Positions 11,726 through 37,824 are shown, counted from the first letter of the stretch. The stretch: 64,000 nt of DNA from Candidatus Yanofskybacteria bacterium (GCA_016185525.1 JACPNK010000006.1:115440-179439); one strand, 5' to 3'. Program-made: numbers and translations. The notes: generated from the letters alone by a model not told the origin.

Positions 11726-13117
11726 CTATCTTGGTTTGACCAAGGGTCCATGCTCCGTGTCTTCTATTTGGTAGCCTTTTGAACTTATTTGCCGGCGCAG
11801 GTCGTCGGCTTCGGAGTAGCGCTTGTCTCGTCGCAGTTTCTCGCGCGTATCAATCATATCCAAGATCTCATTCGGGGTCTTTTTTGTTTTTCTGGGGATT
11901 ATGCCCAAAATGTTGTTGAACTCTTCAAAAAGTTTTTTTATTTTTTTGGCTGATTTTTTATCAACTTTATTTTCAGCCAACAATGGATTTAACTCTTTTA
12001 TCATTTTAAAAATAGCGGCAATGGCTTGAGGAGTGTTAAAATCGTCGTCCATAGCTTCCAAGAATTCCTTCCTTGTTTCAAGCAAGATTTCCCCTGCGCC
12101 ACTGAGAAGTTGAACTTCTAAGCGGCGGATATTTGATAATTTGCGCAGAAATTCTTCGATTCTTTGGATACCGGCCCAAGAAGATTTTATCGCTTCTTCG
12201 CGATAATCAATAGGCGAACGGTAGTGAGTGGACAAAACAAGAAAACGCAAAGCCTCTGCGGAATATTTTTTAAGAGTGTCTCTGATGGTTATAAAGTTGC
12301 CAAGAGATTTGGACATTTTCTGGCCGTTGATAGTCAGAAAACCGGTGTGGAGCCAATACTTTACAAAAGGTTTCTTGCCGGAAATTGACTCCATTTGGGC
12401 TATTTCCGCTTCGTGGTGAGGGAAAATTAAATCTCTGGCTCCGCCGTGCAGATCGTACTGCTCCCCGAAATGCTTTTCGGTAATTGCCGTGTCTTCAATG
12501 TGCCAGCCGGGCCGCCCTTCTCCCAGTTCTGTTTTCCATTTTGGTTCTCCCGGTTTTGAAAACTTCCACAAGTTAAAATCGCCCTTGTTCTTTTTATTGA
12601 CGCTTTCGTCTATGCGACTTACGGCATCTTCCGCGCTTTCGGTTGTGCGACCGGAAAGCTTGCCATATTCCGGAAATTTTTTTAAGTCAAAGTAAAAACC
12701 GTCACTAGGAATTTCGTAAGCAAAGCCTTTTTCCTTCAGCCTTTTAACTTGCGATACGATTTGTTTGATATACTTTGTCGCCGGAGCGTATTTATAGACA
12801 CTGGTAATGCCAAGCGATTTTACATCTTGGTAGTAAGCTTTTTCAAATTCTTTAGCCAGAGTCAGCGGTTCTTTGTTTTCCTGTTTGGCTTTCGCGATTA
12901 TTTTATCTTCTATGTCGGTAATGTTCTGCAGGTATTTAACCCTGTAGCCTTTGTATTTGAGGTATTTGGCGATGACGTCAAAAGAAATATAAGTACGCGC
13001 GTGGCCGATATGCGAGTAATCATAAACCGTCGGTCCGCAGACAAACATATTCACCTTTTTGCCTTGGCGCGGCACAAATTCTTCTTTTTGTCTGGTTAGA
13101 GAATTATAGATTTGCAT
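11726..13117 (-). CDS. cysS: cysteinyl-tRNA synthetase
   Basis: HIGH (HIGHARTY) and KMSKS motifs with class I CysRS architecture. Confidence 0.9.
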   Translation of the reverse strand: MQIYNSLTRQKEEFVPRQGKKVNMFVCGPTVYDYSHIGHARTYISFDVIAKYLKYKGYRVKYLQNITDIEDKIIAKAKQENKEPLTLAKEFEKAYYQDVKSLGITSVYKYAPATKYIKQIVSQVKRLKEKGFAYEIPSDGFYFDLKKFPEYGKLSGRTTESAEDAVSRIDESVNKKNKGDFNLWKFSKPGEPKWKTELGEGRPGWHIEDTAITEKHFGEQYDLHGGARDLIFPHHEAEIAQMESISGKKPFVKYWLHTGFLTINGQKMSKSLGNFITIRDTLKKYSAEALRFLVLSTHYRSPIDYREEAIKSSWAGIQRIEEFLRKLSNIRRLEVQLLSGAGEILLETRKEFLEAMDDDFNTPQAIAAIFKMIKELNPLLAENKVDKKSAKKIKKLFEEFNNILGIIPRKTKKTPNEILDMIDTREKLRRDKRYSEADDLRRQISSKGYQIEDTEHGPLVKPR

Positions 13118-26339: not shown

Positions 26340-27269
26340 TTAGACTTTTTCCAAAAGTCTACCGTAACCGTTTATAAACTCTTTGGTGTTTAGCACTTTT
26401 CCTCCTTCAAGCTGGAGTTTTAACAGCTCTAAATAATCCTTAGCGCAAGGCATAATCAAAAGACCGTTTTTTTGATAAATTTTTCCACTTAGAAGTTCTC
26501 CACTTAGAAGTTCAACTTCTAAGTGACTTTTATGAATTTTGCAGTCAATAATTTTTAATATTTTATTTTGCCACTTAAACCATATTCCCGGCCATTTGTG
26601 AAAGGCGCGAAATTGGTTGTAAATTTCTTCGGCTGTTTTGTGCCAGTTTATTTTGCCGTCTTCTTTGGTAATAATTTTAGTGAAGGTGGCTTGCGACTCG
26701 TCTTGCGGTTGAGGTGTGGTTTTTCCACTAAGATATTTCGGTAATAACTTAAGTAATAAGCCAGCACCCTTTTTCACCAGACGCATTTTTAGGTCATAGT
26801 ATTTGTCATCCGGCGCGATTGGTTCTTGTTCCATTCCTAAGACGGGTCCGTGGTCAACTTTTTCGTCCAGCACAAAGACCGTTACGCCGGTCTCTTTTTC
26901 GCCGTTAAGCAGGGCGTACTGGATGGGGGACGGGCCGCGGTATTTCGGTAACAGCGAACCGTGGATATTGAGTAAACCATGTTTCGGTAGGTGCAAAAAC
27001 CGTTCAGGAATAATTTTTCCGTAATCTACAACAATTCCGACTGTGGATTGTTTGGCAATTTCTTCAATGCGAGCCAAAGACGGGTCATCTTTTTTAAAAT
27101 TTTCCGGCTGAAGCACTTCAATATTGTGAGATAGGGCTAACTGCTCGGCGGGTGTTGCCGTTTGGCTGTCCGGCGCGGTTACCACAGCCACAACAGTATA
27201 GTCAGCTTGAATCAGCGCTTCCAATACGGGCGTGGCAAAATCCGAAGTGCCAAAGAAAATAGTTTTCAT
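26340..27269 (-). CDS. fmt: methionyl-tRNA formyltransferase
   Basis: N-terminal formyltransferase domain (IFFGTSDFA, HGSLLPKYRG) and C-terminal domain; downstream of def. Confidence 0.9.
   Translation of the reverse strand: MKTIFFGTSDFATPVLEALIQADYTVVAVVTAPDSQTATPAEQLALSHNIEVLQPENFKKDDPSLARIEEIAKQSTVGIVVDYGKIIPERFLHLPKHGLLNIHGSLLPKYRGPSPIQYALLNGEKETGVTVFVLDEKVDHGPVLGMEQEPIAPDDKYYDLKMRLVKKGAGLLLKLLPKYLSGKTTPQPQDESQATFTKIITKEDGKINWHKTAEEIYNQFRAFHKWPGIWFKWQNKILKIIDCKIHKSHLEVELLSGELLSGKIYQKNGLLIMPCAKDYLELLKLQLEGGKVLNTKEFINGYGRLLEKV
26486..26525. repeat. REP-like palindrome (RAYT-associated family) in-frame inside fmt
   Basis: 25-bp perfect palindrome cacttagaagttcaacttctaagtg plus adjacent half-site direct repeat ccacttagaagtt; encodes LEVELLSGELLSGK. 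Confidence 0.85.
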
Positions 27270-32176: not shown

Positions 32177-33451
32177 TTGATGAAAAGTTACAGTTTTAAA
32201 ATTTTTCTTTTGTCCTTTTTTCTGCTTTTTGTTTTTTCGTTTGTTTCTGCCGCCGAAGATATCAATCAGAAAATCTTGGATTTAAGGAAACAAGTTGAAG
32301 AGCTGGAAAAAAAGTCCGAAGAATACAGGAGTGTGGTAAATAGCAAGCAGAAAGAAGCCCAGAGCCTTAAAAGGGAAATTGACATTTTGAATAACCAGAT
32401 TTACAAGCTTGAGACGCAGATCAAGATAACTGACAGTAAAATCAATGTCGCGCGATTTACGATTACCGATTTGCGGGATAAGATTTTTGACCGGCAAGAG
32501 ACAATTAACAACAAAAAAGAAGTCATAGCCTCTCTTATCAATCTTTTTTACAAAAAAGACCAGGAAGACATTGTTGACATAGTGGTAAAGAACAAACGTC
32601 TCTCGGACTTCATTGACCAGATTAAACAGGCGGACAACTTAAATAAAAGTTTGCTGGCCACTGTTACTGTTTTGAAAAACGAAAAGGAAGCTTTGGAGGG
32701 TGAAAAAAACGAGTTGGAGGCGCAAAAACAAGAACTGGAAAGTTTGAATGACACCCAGAAAAATAAGCAGAATTCTTTGGACCTAACCAAAGACGGTAAA
32801 GACAGCTTGCTGGTAAGGACGAAGGGCCAAGAAGCGGCCTATCGTGAGTTGTTGGAAGAAACAGAAAGAAAACAAGCAGAATTTTTCGCCGAATTAAAAA
32901 ACTTGGAAACGCAGGCGGTGCAGTCTGGAGCGTTTATCGTGCATGTTACGGCTGACTCGGTCCCGCCTCGGGGCACAAAATTTTTAAAGTGGCCTTATGA
33001 CGACCATGTTCTCACTCAAAGCTATGGCTATACGACTTTTGCGCGGAGCCGGCGCAAACCCTATGGCGGAGACATACACAACGGTATTGACTTGGCTAGC
33101 GGCTGTGGGACGGCCATAAAGGCGGCGGCGGCGGGCGCGGTACTTGCCAGCGGTTTTAACGACGGATTTGGCAACTGGGTGGCTGTCAGGCACGAAAATA
33201 ACATAGTTACTGTTTATGCCCATATGCGAGATCCTTCTGGTCTTGCCAACGGTACGGCGGTTACCGTCAGTTCAATACTTGGTTACGAAGGCAACACGGG
33301 CAGTGTTTTCAGTGTCCGCACCGGTCCATGTGCCGGCTCGCACCTGCATTTGAGCGTTTATAAAGACTTTTTCACCTACATTAACGACAAAAACGGCCAG
33401 CTTTATTTTAACTACTCCAAGGGGGCTTTGAACCCGCTTGACTATTTGTAG
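32177..33451 (+). CDS. M23/LytM peptidase with N-terminal coiled coil (EnvC-like murein hydrolase)
   Basis: Signal/TM, a long coiled coil and a C-terminal HxxxD...HLH LytM domain (HNGIDLA). Confidence 0.75.
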   Translation: MMKSYSFKIFLLSFFLLFVFSFVSAAEDINQKILDLRKQVEELEKKSEEYRSVVNSKQKEAQSLKREIDILNNQIYKLETQIKITDSKINVARFTITDLRDKIFDRQETINNKKEVIASLINLFYKKDQEDIVDIVVKNKRLSDFIDQIKQADNLNKSLLATVTVLKNEKEALEGEKNELEAQKQELESLNDTQKNKQNSLDLTKDGKDSLLVRTKGQEAAYRELLEETERKQAEFFAELKNLETQAVQSGAFIVHVTADSVPPRGTKFLKWPYDDHVLTQSYGYTTFARSRRKPYGGDIHNGIDLASGCGTAIKAAAAGAVLASGFNDGFGNWVAVRHENNIVTVYAHMRDPSGLANGTAVTVSSILGYEGNTGSVFSVRTGPCAGSHLHLSVYKDFFTYINDKNGQLYFNYSKGALNPLDYL

Positions 33452-33500
33452 TTTTTCTGATACTCTTTTTTCAGTTTGATTTTGAAAATGAGGAGAAACT

Positions 33501-33809
33501 ATGTCGAGTTTTGTATTTCGTTGCACGACGAGAGGCAGCCATACTTTTTTGGAGTTTAATACTCCGGTGAAAATATTTGACTCTGTTAGCGGAGCACGCT
33601 TAATTCTGGAGGAATTACTTGACTTTGAGAAACAAAATCCGGACATGCATATTGTTGGTTGGAAACCGGAAACACACATGGCCACAAATACTAGATTTGG
33701 CATTCTCACCCCTGTTTGTTTTGGAATTTGGATTGACCATGAGCCAAGAGAAAAGGAACCTGAAGACTGTGACTTTGATGCTCTTGAAAGGGCACTAGGA
33801 CAAGATTGA
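33501..33809 (+). CDS. hypothetical small protein, paralog A (WIDHE family)
   Basis: 102 aa, ~35% identical to the 34750..35055 product; shared motifs IL..L..FE.QN, WIDHE and ALxQD. Confidence 0.6.
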   Translation: MSSFVFRCTTRGSHTFLEFNTPVKIFDSVSGARLILEELLDFEKQNPDMHIVGWKPETHMATNTRFGILTPVCFGIWIDHEPREKEPEDCDFDALERALGQD

Positions 33810-33833
33810 ACCCGCGTTTCGCGGGTTTTTTTT
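33808..33833 (+). terminator. rho-independent terminator
   Basis: aacccgcgtttcgcgggtt hairpin plus a T-run; near-identical to 35054..35078. Confidence 0.8.
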
Positions 33834-33847
33834 ATTTCTTAAAAATC

Positions 33848-33883
33848 TACTGAGAAGCTACTGAGAAGTTGAACTTATCAGTA
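33848..33883. repeat. REP palindrome with half-site direct repeat, 5' flank of the RAYT gene
   Basis: tactgagaag x2 half-sites, then the 25-bp palindrome tactgagaagttgaacttatcagta. Confidence 0.85.
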
Positions 33884-33905
33884 GAACATGTTAAATTTCT
33901 GAAAT

Positions 33906-34550
33906 ATGCATAAAGAATATTTTACCAATGGGGAATTTTACCATGTGTATAATCGCGGAAACAATAAGCGAAAAATTTTTTTGGATCAAAGAGACTTTAA
34001 AAGATTTTTTCAAAGCATACGGGAATTCAATTCGGAAGAACCGATTGGTAGTATATATCTTAATTCTTTTAAGGACGCCTCGCTTAGAAGTTCAACTTCT
34101 AAGTTAGTTGATTTTGTTTGTTTTTGTTTAAATCCAAATCATTATCATTTTATTCTCAAGCAACTAAAAGAAAGGGGTATTGAAAAGTTTTTACATAGAC
34201 TTGGCACGGGTTATACTAAATATTTTAATGAAAAACATAAATGCAGTGGCTCTCTTTTTCAGGGCAGGTATAAAGCGATACACTTAAACTCTAATGAATA
34301 CCTACTACATCTTAGTGCCTATGTGAATTTAAATTATGAAGTTCACCAACTGAGAAGTTCAACTTATCAGTGTGATTATAAATCTAGTTGGGCAGAATAT
34401 CAAAACAACTTGGTAGAAAGTATATGTAATAAAGACATTGTACTTTCTCAGTTTAGAAACTTTGATAAGTATAGGGAATTTGCAGTTAATGCTATTCAAA
34501 TAAGTAGGACCAAAAAAGATATGGAAAAGTTGTTATTGGAAGAGGTCTGA
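33906..34550 (+). CDS. REP-associated tyrosine transposase (RAYT; IS200-like HuH Y1 transposase, TnpA_REP)
   Basis: YHVYNRGNNKRKIF N-terminus, HuH motif NHYHFIL, GRYKA and Y..N C-terminal tyrosine region are typical of COG1943 RAYTs; the gene is flanked by inverted REPs. Confidence 0.8.
   Translation: MHKEYFTNGEFYHVYNRGNNKRKIFLDQRDFKRFFQSIREFNSEEPIGSIYLNSFKDASLRSSTSKLVDFVCFCLNPNHYHFILKQLKERGIEKFLHRLGTGYTKYFNEKHKCSGSLFQGRYKAIHLNSNEYLLHLSAYVNLNYEVHQLRSSTYQCDYKSSWAEYQNNLVESICNKDIVLSQFRNFDKYREFAVNAIQISRTKKDMEKLLLEEV
34083..34103. repeat. REP palindrome inside the RAYT coding sequence, copy 1 (in-frame)
   Basis: cttagaagttcaacttctaag encoding LRSSTSK. Confidence 0.85.
34350..34370. repeat. REP palindrome inside the RAYT coding sequence, copy 2 (in-frame)
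   Basis: ctgagaagttcaacttatcag encoding LRSSTYQ. Confidence 0.8.
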
Positions 34551-34557
34551 CTCTGAT

Positions 34558-34645
34558 CACTGATAAGTCACTGATAAGTTGAACTTCTCAGTAAAAACTT
34601 CTCAGTAAAAACTTCTCAGTAAACTTCTCAGTAAATTTCTCAGTA
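34558..34645. repeat. REP palindrome plus tandem half-site array, 3' flank of the RAYT gene
   Basis: cactgataagt x2, palindrome cactgataagttgaacttctcagta (inverted relative to the 5' REP), then (aa)aacttctcagta x4 tandem. Confidence 0.9.
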
Positions 34646-34749
34646 AAAGGTTTCGAACTATTACGCGGCAGTGCATCGTGTATTTGACTACTTGCAGGAT
34701 ATCTGCTAGGGTCGATTTGCTTTTTAATAATTAGTGAAAGGATAGAAAA

Positions 34750-35055
34750 ATGTCTCGTACGTCTCACATGTCTCATGTTTTCAAGAAAATACACAAGGGT
34801 GGTCGTTCGTTTTTCATGCTAACTGGCAGTAATAATATGGAGGCAGTAGGCAGGAAAATTTTAGATGTTCTTAGCGAATTTGAAGATCAAAATCTAGGCA
34901 AAAAGATAACAAACTGGAGGGCTAATATAAGGTATGTTACCGATGTGGAACCACCTTTCTTTTCTTGTGCTCTTTGGGTTGACCACGAGTCGTGTTGGTT
35001 AAGAGATAAGCCTCCGTCAACAAGCGAACTTGATAACGCTCTAGACCAAGATTAA
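34750..35055 (+). CDS. hypothetical small protein, paralog B (WVDHE family)
   Basis: 101 aa homologous to 33501..33809; RBS AAAGGA upstream. Confidence 0.6.
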   Translation: MSRTSHMSHVFKKIHKGGRSFFMLTGSNNMEAVGRKILDVLSEFEDQNLGKKITNWRANIRYVTDVEPPFFSCALWVDHESCWLRDKPPSTSELDNALDQD

Positions 35056-35078
35056 ACCCGCATTTTGCGGGTTTTTTT
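35054..35078 (+). terminator. rho-independent terminator
   Basis: aaacccgcattttgcgggttt plus a T-run. Confidence 0.8.
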
Positions 35079-35134
35079 ATTTTTTCTAGACATAAACCGA
35101 GCTTGTCTCGGTTTATGGTCTTTAGAAAACAATA

Positions 35135-35270
35135 ACCCCACCTTAATTTTGCCTTTTATGTTTTTAAAGATAAATTTGGCTTGGAAAATGCTAGAAGCGC
35201 AGAGGCCGAATAGGCCCGAGCGTAAGCGAGTGCGCTTCCGTGGTTTTATGGGCAAAATTAAGGTTGGGGT
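35135..35270 (+). ncRNA. candidate structured RNA or cis-regulatory leader upstream of ndh
   Basis: Long-range closing stem accccaccttaattttgcc / ggcaaaattaaggttggggt (19 bp) encloses nested helices gaagcgca/tgcgcttc and ggccgaataggcc; a separate hairpin lies at 35092..35116. Confidence 0.35.
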
Positions 35271-35299
35271 AAACAAGGTTTTTATGTTAAAATTAAAAC

Positions 35300-36547
35300 A
35301 TGGTCAACATCTTAATTATCGGCGGGGGATTTGGGGGAGTCAGGACTGCTTTGGACTTGAACAAGAAGTTGTCGTCTGAAGAGGCGTCAATTACTCTTGT
35401 TGACAGAAATAACTATCATCTGTTTTTGCCGTCGCTTTACGAAGTGGCATCATCTTTCGGTTTGGATTTAAACAAAGAGGAGATAAGGCTTAAAAAAACT
35501 ATTGCAATTCCTTTTGGCGAGATTTTTGAGGACACAAAAGTCAACTTTGTTCAAGCAGAAATCGTCAGCGTAGATTTGAATAAGAAAGAGGTACGGTCAA
35601 AAGGAGAAAAATTTTTTAGATACGATTATCTGGTTTTAGCTTTAGGGGCGGAGACGGAAACTTTTGGCACGGCTGGAGTCGTAGAATATGCTTACAAGTT
35701 CAAAAGCGTGGAGGAAGCTGTTTTTCTTAATAAAAAAATAAATGAGAAATACAAAGAGGCTGAAAGGGGTCAGCGTCCGCTACCTGTTAGATTTATTGTT
35801 GTCGGCGCGGGCTTTAACGGCATAGAACTTGCCGGAGAACTGGCATGCTGTACCAAAAAAATAGCGGAAGTTTGCAAGCTAAAAAATAAATGTACAGAGA
35901 TTAAGCTGGTTGAAGCGGCGCCCCAAATATTGCCCATGGTTTATGACAAAGAAAGGGCGATGATTCGTAAGAGACTGGAAAGGTTGGGGGTTGAGGTTTT
36001 GGAGAATTCTCCAATTGAACAGGTCGGGCCCGATTTTGTTCAAATTAAGAATGGTCCAAGGCTGAACGCTGATTTTATAATCTGGACCGCCGGTATACGG
36101 GCTTCTTCATTTTTAAAAAATATTTCCGGTTTAAAATTAGATGAAAGAGGAAAAATGACTGTTAACGAATTTATGCAGTCGTCAGACAGGCCGGAAGTTT
36201 TTGGGGTGGGGGACAGCGCTGTGTTTTTGGACCCAGCCACCAAAAAACCGGTTCCAGCGTTGGCTTACGTGGCGGTTGACCAAGGAAAAGTTGTTGCGGA
36301 AAATATCTTAAGAGTTTTAAAAAATAAAAGACCGCAAGAATACAGGCCATTCTATAATGTCTGGATAGCTCCGGTAGGAGGCAAGTTTGCCGTGGCGCGT
36401 TTGGGTAAGAATTTTACCGTTTCAGGGTTCTGGGGCTGGGTTTTGAGAGAACTGGTTGATTTCAGGTATATGTACTCAATCTTGCCGTTTTCAAAAGCTG
36501 TATCGCTAATGTCAGAGAATGTGGCGGTATTTACAAAAAACGACTAA
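35300..36547 (+). CDS. ndh: type II NADH dehydrogenase / FAD-dependent pyridine nucleotide-disulfide oxidoreductase
   Basis: GGGFGG and a second GAGFNG Rossmann motif; NDH-2 length. Confidence 0.75.
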   Translation: MVNILIIGGGFGGVRTALDLNKKLSSEEASITLVDRNNYHLFLPSLYEVASSFGLDLNKEEIRLKKTIAIPFGEIFEDTKVNFVQAEIVSVDLNKKEVRSKGEKFFRYDYLVLALGAETETFGTAGVVEYAYKFKSVEEAVFLNKKINEKYKEAERGQRPLPVRFIVVGAGFNGIELAGELACCTKKIAEVCKLKNKCTEIKLVEAAPQILPMVYDKERAMIRKRLERLGVEVLENSPIEQVGPDFVQIKNGPRLNADFIIWTAGIRASSFLKNISGLKLDERGKMTVNEFMQSSDRPEVFGVGDSAVFLDPATKKPVPALAYVAVDQGKVVAENILRVLKNKRPQEYRPFYNVWIAPVGGKFAVARLGKNFTVSGFWGWVLRELVDFRYMYSILPFSKAVSLMSENVAVFTKND

Positions 36548-37180: not shown

Positions 37181-37726
37181 TCATTTTCTGTTCTGGTTCC
37201 CCCATTTGAAAGGTTTTTCTCTTTGTGATTTATAAAACATCATTCTGTTTCTGATTTCTTGAAGTTTTTTGTGGTCAAGGCCGTTCATTTCTTTTTTTGT
37301 AAATCCTCTCTGGCCTTTTGTAACATTTAAACCCTCTCTTCTGTTTTTGTTTACTATTTTAACCGCGCAGCTCCATAGTTGGAAGTCAATCCCCTTTTTT
37401 GCGTAGAGTTTATGTCTTTTAAAAAATGGTATAATTTTTTCTACTAGATCTTTCGGATTTTGGACCGAGAATCTAACCTGATTCTGTTTTTTTATTATAA
37501 CGACCGACCCACAGCCAAAAGTTTCTTTGATTAAGTTTAATATGTTAAAATCGTCAGATCTTAAAACAATGGCAAATTCAGTATTCCAGTAAAAATACTC
37601 TCGGAATTTTTTATTGTTCTTATTTTGTTTTTTATCCCTTCTAAATTTAAGAGCAAAACAACCCTCCCCGTCTACAAAGCCAGCTATGTAATTGCCAGGC
37701 AACTTAGCGACTGTATTTTTATCCAT
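37181..37726 (-). CDS. free-standing LAGLIDADG homing endonuclease
   Basis: LAGLIDADG motif (YIAGFVDGEGCF) 12 aa after the internal Met; the track ORF extends to 37792; ~181 aa, the single-motif homodimeric class. Confidence 0.8.
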   Translation of the reverse strand: MDKNTVAKLPGNYIAGFVDGEGCFALKFRRDKKQNKNNKKFREYFYWNTEFAIVLRSDDFNILNLIKETFGCGSVVIIKKQNQVRFSVQNPKDLVEKIIPFFKRHKLYAKKGIDFQLWSCAVKIVNKNRREGLNVTKGQRGFTKKEMNGLDHKKLQEIRNRMMFYKSQREKPFKWGNQNRK

Positions 37727-37824
37727 ATTATAAATTATACTACAATCACATTGCGTCGCACAAAAGTTTAAAACGAAGGTTATCAACAGCAACCAAAAAG
37801 TAAAAAACTCCTTTGGTTAGGAGT

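Follow-up and report, generated by a model that had tools for sequence, protein, structure and literature searches.

The locus described here lies in a 64-kb window, the whole stretch of DNA that was analysed (64,000 nucleotides), taken from a metagenome-assembled genome of Candidatus Yanofskybacteria, a bacterium of the Candidate Phyla Radiation (CPR). The conserved left flank is the gene of a coiled-coil M23 peptidase (32177..33451, + strand; Pfam Peptidase_M23), and the conserved right flank is the gene of an NDH-2-like oxidoreductase of the Pyr_redox_2 type (35300..36547, +). The slot between them holds two small open reading frames (ORFs), which we call cassette A (HYX21_03520; 33501..33809, +; 102 aa) and cassette B (HYX21_03530; 34750..35055, +; 101 aa). 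The ORF of a RAYT-like Y1 (HUH) transposase (33906..34550, +; 214 aa) is placed between the two cassettes. Each cassette is self-contained, with a putative promoter, an ORF, a tail and a terminator, and forms a complete slot unit of ~395 nt. Unit A occupies 33438..33836 and unit B occupies 34684..35081, and they are separated by the RAYT-like element and 36 nt.

A and B are homologous. Pairwise BLASTP gives 29% identity at E 5e-9 (30% in the family alignment), and the profile of the family, when run against the six-frame translation of the window, matches A and B only (E 1e-33 and 5e-27). A sequence-only reading of this DNA had described them as paralogs of ~100 aa with the motifs IL..L..FE.QN, W[IV]DHE and AL.QD in common. 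The similarity is indeed significant and the motifs are found in both ORFs. The same reading expected that a nucleotide alignment would date the duplication. This is impossible, since the codon-aligned bodies are saturated, with 43% nucleotide identity, 37% at third positions, and a proportion of synonymous differences (pS) of 0.79. In the family alignment the best match of A is the member P0002 (67% identity), ahead of P0004 and P0006 (53% each). The most divergent member of the family is B, with P0009 (38%) and P0008 (36%) as its nearest relatives. Recent tandem duplicates are expected to be mutual closest relatives with low synonymous divergence, and A and B are neither. They are anciently diverged versions of one small gene, not fresh duplicates. 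The ratio of nonsynonymous to synonymous divergence (dN/dS) between A and P0002 is 0.20, which indicates that purifying selection acts on the gene inside a given lineage.

The comparison set consists of related haplotypes of the slot (L001, L003, L006, L008, L010, L013, L014, L015, L016 and L017). In all ten a family gene, one per haplotype, is found downstream of the same M23 gene. Where both sides of the slot are visible (L006, L010, L013, L014 and L015), it is followed by the Pyr_redox_2 gene, and GltX lies upstream of M23, as in the window. Neither a RAYT nor a pair of intact cassettes is present at the slot in any of the ten. Between M23 and the cassette of L010 and L017 there is an insertion of about 540 nt, which contains a 100-aa ORF on the reverse strand.

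The closest relative of the window is L015. The nucleotide identity of this pair is 87-97% through M23 to its stop codon, 35-50% over the whole slot, non-coding DNA included, and 80-100% from the first Pyr_redox_2 codons on. The flanking genes have dS ~0.6 and dN 0.03-0.06, and the cassettes have pS 0.74-0.91 and dN 0.52-0.66. The same is seen in pairs of loci, where the identities of the last 84 aa of M23 and of the cassette are 96/44, 94/38, 98/40 and 95/49 percent. L001 carries P0002, the closest relative of A, and L008 carries P0009, the closest relative of B. The flanks of these two haplotypes are 90% identical upstream and 98% identical downstream (175 nt), whereas their cassette bodies show 46% nucleotide and 41% amino-acid identity. 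Such divergent cassettes between near-identical flanks suggest that the slot can be filled by either an A-like or a B-like gene and that recombination exchanges the two. The divergence of the cassettes is uncoupled from that of the flanks, and the contents of the slot appear to be replaced by recombination.

Other sources of variability were considered and set aside. A diversity-generating retroelement is rejected, as the whole slot with its non-coding DNA is divergent and there is no template/variable repeat pair. A system of an M23 toxin and a small immunity protein finds no support, since M23 and the cassette do not vary together; the CPR members, judged by their N-termini, also have no signal peptides. 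The M23 peptidase has a variation of its own at 33300-33335, just before the HxH motif, where an extra segment, SVFSVRTGPCAG, stands beside the catalytic HLH. It is common to the M23 proteins of the window, L010 and L015, and the other relatives have a shorter NATG there.

Both units open with the same block, TTGACTAYTTGYAG, formed by the end of the M23 coding sequence. The tandem layout noticed in the sequence-only reading is thus borne out further. The left arm of unit A (33438..33466, +) consists of TTGACT, which is formed by the final Leu-Asp-Tyr codons of M23, a 17-nt spacer with the M23 stop codon, and TACTCT. The final M23 codons read TTGACT in every locus, and the TTGACT-17-TAnnnT layout is also found in L001, L003, L006, L008, L013, L014 and L015. 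The TAnnnT hexamers include TAAAAT, TATTAT, TACTAT and TAAGAT, and they are followed by the ribosome-binding site and the cassette. We infer that this layout is the putative promoter of the cassette; the TTGACT-17-TACTCT of unit A is not among the sites listed by a consensus promoter scan. The left arm of unit B, TTGACTACTTGCAGGATATCTGCTAGGGT (34684..34712, +), is a remnant of the M23 3′ end together with the intergenic sequence that follows it, with the stop codon changed from TAG to CAG. It is also a putative promoter of the form TTGACT-17-TAGGGT. In local alignments this arm aligns to the M23 stop region in every related locus, with shuffle p values of 0.003-0.16, which are <=0.04 in 6 of the 11 comparisons.

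At the other end of the units the stop codons of A and B each abut the hairpin AACCCGC-5nt-GCGGGTT, followed by a T-run. In unit A the terminator GAACCCGCG-TTT-CGCGGGTTT with its T-run (33808..33836, +; RNA fold −16.3 kcal/mol, z −4.2) overlaps the stop codon. The terminator of unit B is AAACCCGC-ATTTT-GCGGGTTT with its T-run (35054-35081, +; −13.6 kcal/mol, z −4.7). They are the two strongest terminator-like sites within the surrounding 20 kb, and their pattern occurs nowhere else in the 64 kb, where 0.25 sites are expected by chance. Over their final 55 nt the units share 80% identity, so that the near-identical terminators of the sequence-only reading are real. They do not, however, date a duplication: a CCGC...GCGG stem stands 0-6 nt from the stop after family genes in 8 of 9 other genomes. 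As the stop-abutting hairpin is family-wide, the similar terminators mark a 3′ module and not the age of a duplication.

In unit B the 3′ module continues with a second, perfect 11-bp hairpin, CATAAACCGAG / CTCGGTTTATG (within 35054..35116, +), which is common to L013. The tail, terminator and downstream hairpin of B are ~91% identical to L013 over ~88 nt, despite the flanking proteins of L013 being only ~62% identical to those of the window. The tail of A is ~87% identical to L006, the M23 of which is 64% identical. Each of the two tails is nearer to a foreign locus than to the other tail. L010 and L015 have yet another terminator variant in common, and their cassettes are 40% identical. The 3′ modules are thus mosaic across loci. 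The synonymous codons of the ALGQD tail vary between loci, which indicates that the tail is conserved as protein.

Similar 3′ ends might also arise if A and B had undergone gene conversion with each other in this genome, which would leave just such an island of 80% identity against ~43% elsewhere. We consider this very unlikely. The tails are of different types, CDFDALERALGQD (type 1) in A and SELDNALDQD (type 2) in B, and the better matches of both are the above ones in other genomes. The loops of the two terminators are not identical (GTTTC and ATTTT), and the synonymous differences in ALGQD show constraint at the protein level. The gene of L001 matches the body of A and the tail of B. The possibility that P0002 is a product of deletion between A and B was dropped, since the type-2 tail is that of the family majority and the terminator loop of L001 matches L008, not B.

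A conserved module of ~110 nt is seen after several cassettes (L010 5340-5460, L001 440-555, L008 400-500, L017 1340-1440). It is composed of TTGACA-17-TATACT or TAGTGT, a hairpin and AAAAAGGAGATAA, and different genes lie downstream of it in different loci. In L010 nothing but TTGGAAATATAA and a terminator of the family type comes after the module. This looks like a deleted second cassette, so that L010 carries an intact cassette and a gutted one, of which the promoter, the ribosome-binding site, TTGGAAATATAA and the terminator are left.

The ORF between the units encodes a protein that matches Pfam Y1_Tnp (28 bits against a cut-off of 23, E 2.6e-6), and the HUH-like NPNHYHFIL as well as a segment YVNLNY are readable in its translation. 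With the RAYT equivalog of NCBIfam, REP_Tyr_transpos (NF047646), it scores 28.2 bits against a cut-off of 80, and it has no PDB sequence match at E<=1. The ORF is enclosed by 38-nt end repeats (33849-33886 and 34559-34596), which are 84% identical and each contain a palindrome of 22-24 nt. The two palindromes (33859-33882 and 34570-34593) are inverted and 96% complementary. The left end of the element (33849..33886, +) consists of a half-arm and the palindrome ACTGAGAAGTTGAACTTATCAGT (hairpin in single-stranded DNA, z −2.7). The right end (34559..34647, +) consists of the 38-nt repeat, in which the palindrome has the opposite sense, and then of five tandem right-arm copies, AAACTTCTCAGTAAA (34581-34647, period 12-14 nt). 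All short-read contigs of the same organism start or stop within this array. The sequence-only reading had placed a RAYT between the paralogs; a Y1 transposase ORF with inverted palindromes is indeed found at the junction, and it stays below the cut-off of the RAYT equivalog.

The RAYT-like gene has one copy in the window. It is missing from the corresponding slot of L015 and is thus not syntenic. Exact-sequence look-ups recover the identical protein only from short-read assemblies of the same organism, and relatives of the protein are absent among viral contigs. Six palindrome sites are present in the 64 kb, with 0 expected by chance, and 4 of them are at the RAYT-like gene. Two of these copies are in frame within the ORF itself (34083-34104, aa 60-67, and 34350-34371, aa 149-156). 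The palindrome is also found in frame inside cysteinyl-tRNA synthetase (12102-12122, aa 332-339), between the catalytic and DALR domains, and inside methionyl-tRNA formyltransferase (26503-26523, aa 249-256). Such palindromes in coding sequences recall the Rickettsia palindromic elements.

The palindromes do not coincide with the boundaries of the units, and nothing shows that the RAYT-like element caused the duplication. L010 and L017 present an independent case at the same slot, with a duplicated 33-nt M23 3′ end followed by a palindrome of the same type. Another rival is that gene A was duplicated recently, whether spontaneously or through the RAYT and its palindromes, with the terminators as the leftover of the repeat. 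It would account for the tandem layout with the transposase exactly between the copies and for the similarity of the last 55 nt. We give it hardly any credence, as the bodies are saturated at the nucleotide level and share 30% of their amino acids, each tail is nearer to a foreign gene than to its neighbour, the hairpin is family-wide, and the palindromes do not bound the duplicated units.

Hence, we suggest, with a probability of roughly 60%, that A and B are two versions of an independently transcribed gene in a hypervariable slot that is replaced by recombination, and that a second unit has been added to the slot in this genome. The slot unit would be built of the last codons of M23 as the left arm, with the putative −35 box in it, of the variable body, of the WIDHEP block with the tail, and of the hairpin terminator. 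The conserved arms would let the bodies be swapped between lineages via homologous recombination. In this genome a whole second unit would have been added, with the first one not being replaced. B is the likely original resident, holding the ancestral right flank and the stranded remnant of the M23 3′ end, and A would have been placed adjoining the intact M23. With B keeping these two features and A at the intact M23, the locus has the anatomy of a resident cassette displaced downstream. The RAYT-like element at the joint may have come with the added DNA, may have been inserted later, or may have given the homology for an unequal exchange.

A rival explanation is an old tandem duplication in situ, with one copy lost from most lineages by deletion between the repeated arms and with the RAYT-like element inserted afterwards. 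The units A and B are of the same architecture and length, the direct repeats required for such deletions are present, and L010 has an intact cassette next to a gutted one. However, none of the 5 complete related slots has two intact copies. In the non-coding parts of unit B (M23 remnant, 3′ module) conservation is much higher than in the coding body, which is not what an old duplication in place would be expected to leave. Moreover, the whole slot, and not the gene alone, is non-homologous between genomes with ~93% identical flanks. We therefore regard the in-situ duplication as unlikely, though worth keeping in mind, and prefer the addition of a second unit to a recombining slot.

Several points weigh against the preferred reading as well. 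As the closest relative of B is just 38% identical, the description of A and B as ‘alleles’ is drawn from the L001/L008 pair and not from orthologues of B. The M23 remnant is short (14-29 nt), its individual p values range over 0.003-0.16, and some of it may owe its conservation to a role as −35 box and not to descent. The M23 of the window has no visible recombination breakpoint in the comparison with L015. Among the haplotypes found, none has A and B adjacent without the RAYT and none has the RAYT alone; these haplotypes are about ten in number, and many of them are short contigs.

Two further features are located to the right of the cassettes. Between the terminator of B and the NDH-2-like gene there is a segment of ~140 nt (35133-35271), bounded by 21-nt inverted repeats that are 90% complementary. 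It folds as a long closed stem (z −2.6), is not at the equivalent position in L006, L013 or L015, and has no other copy in the window and no Rfam match. It may be an insertion like a miniature inverted-repeat transposable element or a structured leader. The Rfam search of the locus gave only sub-threshold look-alikes of terminators. Two genes 3′ of the slot lies a free-standing ORF of 203 aa (37181-37792, −), for which a LAGLIDADG_1 homing-endonuclease domain is annotated in the identical Logan contig L026.

The family of the cassettes was collected with an exhaustive profile search, which gives 45 cluster representatives at E<=1e-3 and 11 at E<=1e-10. A word-indexed search for relatives has almost no matches. 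Full-length proteins with the C-terminal tail make up 11 of the 45 representatives. In the first of two architectures, proteins of 93-121 aa without a signal peptide are composed of the conserved domain G-N-H/R-S...IL..L..FE..NP.L.V..W...G[LI]W[IV]DHEP, a linker of 9 to ~45 residues, and the near-invariant C-terminus [SD][ED]LDNALGQD. The CPR members have no signal peptides, as judged from their N-termini by eye. In the second architecture, which belongs to other phyla, an N-terminal signal or lipoprotein sequence is present and the protein stops just after WIDHEP. Signal peptides of the lipoprotein type, with a Cys after the hydrophobic stretch, and no C-terminal tail are seen in L004 5845-6213, P0013, P0016, P0018, P0021 and P0026. 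The presence of such signals in distant members from outside the Yanofskybacteria suggests that the domain is used both inside and outside the cell. The neighbourhoods of the distant members with signal peptides show no common context, and a metagenome scan for further slots gave three loci only.

The cassettes have no sequence match in Pfam, NCBIfam, PHROG, PADLOC or PDB, and Foldseek with their models finds no significant match in PDB or BFVD. The family is rare and uncharacterised in all databases searched, as the sequence-only reading had supposed. In the AlphaFold2 models A and B have the same beta-beta-alpha-beta-beta fold with a short C-terminal helix (pLDDT 89.8 and 85.7, respectively). 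B retains 9 of the 10 near-invariant positions and has Arg for the His of GNH, a recurrent variant (7 of 45 members). A metal-binding site formed by GNH and DHE, which we also considered, is weakened by this His-to-Arg change and by the replacement of the Glu with Lys or Arg in 15 of 45 members.

The architecture, with its variable domain, linker of variable length and invariant C-terminal helix, suggests that a variable domain serves in recognition and is tethered to a conserved peptide for docking or capping. With low confidence, we propose that the variable domain and the docking helix act in some recognition or conflict role. A swapped gene between stable neighbours is the usual signature of conflict or recognition genes. 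A more specific version is that the family serves CPR bacteria as a polymorphic determinant of specificity, e.g. in self/non-self discrimination, immunity, anti-phage defence or host interaction. Its variable domain would be exchanged as a cassette via built-in homology arms, the left one being the M23 3′ end with the promoter and the right one the WIDHEP block, tail and terminator. The LDNALGQD helix would dock to a conserved partner, and the two-cassette state would be a stored or displaced allele. We put this forward as a speculation of low probability.

The genomes of CPR bacteria are tiny, mobile elements have rarely been recognised in them, and a great many of their small genes lack annotation. 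In this setting the locus presents one gene-sized slot in which a compact, confidently modelled and unclassified protein appears to be swapped between lineages while its neighbours are >90% identical. It thus gives a concrete candidate, with a conserved tail, for experiments on what is under diversifying pressure in episymbionts. It also calls for caution, since a transposase found between two paralogues that end in nearly the same terminator is not in itself a sign that the duplication was recent or was driven by the transposase.

The locus can be compared with several known systems. In integrons, the ORF of a gene cassette is followed by a 57-141 bp attC site, an integrase is encoded nearby, and the cassette usually has no promoter. 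This assignment is rejected for A and B, as the stem of 7-9 bp with a T-run is of the terminator type, each cassette has its own putative promoter, and no integrase adjoins the locus. With replacement hotspots the slot has in common a fall of identity from >90% to the random level, which coincides exactly with the borders of the two conserved genes, and alternative contents between near-identical flanks. Unlike in those hotspots, the slot normally holds one ~300-bp gene of one family and not assorted cargo, and the WIDHEP block, tail and terminator give the cassettes internal homology arms in common.

RAYT genes are single-copy and vertically inherited, and their repeats are abundant and dispersed in the genome. 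RAYTs and IS200 have a common catalytic centre (PMC5581495). The element described here resembles both RAYT with repetitive extragenic palindromic (REP) sequences, including REPINs, and IS200/IS605 in having an ORF like a Y1 HUH transposase, hairpin-forming palindromes of opposite sense on either side, and the same palindrome elsewhere, seen here within the window. It differs from these systems in its score, which is far under the equivalog cut-off, in having no PDB sequence match, and in the lack of synteny with L015. It also differs in that the palindromes lie inside coding sequences, including the ORF of the element itself.

The orphan cdiA-CT/cdiI and rhs-CT modules of the contact-dependent inhibition (CDI) and Rhs systems are displaced downstream, keep homology to the upstream gene and have transposase genes interspersed (PMC4927057). 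These systems form tandem arrays of divergent modules, which are replaced by recombination between strains (PMC4927057). The slot is similar in its tandem divergent modules, in the upstream-gene fragment retained by the downstream module, B, and in the transposase between them: the displaced module with upstream homology and the intervening transposase have their counterparts in the M23 remnant and the RAYT-like ORF. However, the slot departs from CDI/Rhs in several ways. Neither a toxin domain nor a pairing with an immunity protein is evident, and M23, the conserved upstream gene, does not vary together with the cassette. The retained fragment has just 14-29 nt, a putative promoter belongs to each cassette, and the host is a CPR bacterium. 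Replacement hotspots, displaced cassettes and RAYT/REP are thus already known kinds. The family, its conserved tail and the setting in a CPR genome are new, and a hypervariable slot of a single gene such as this one is previously undescribed.

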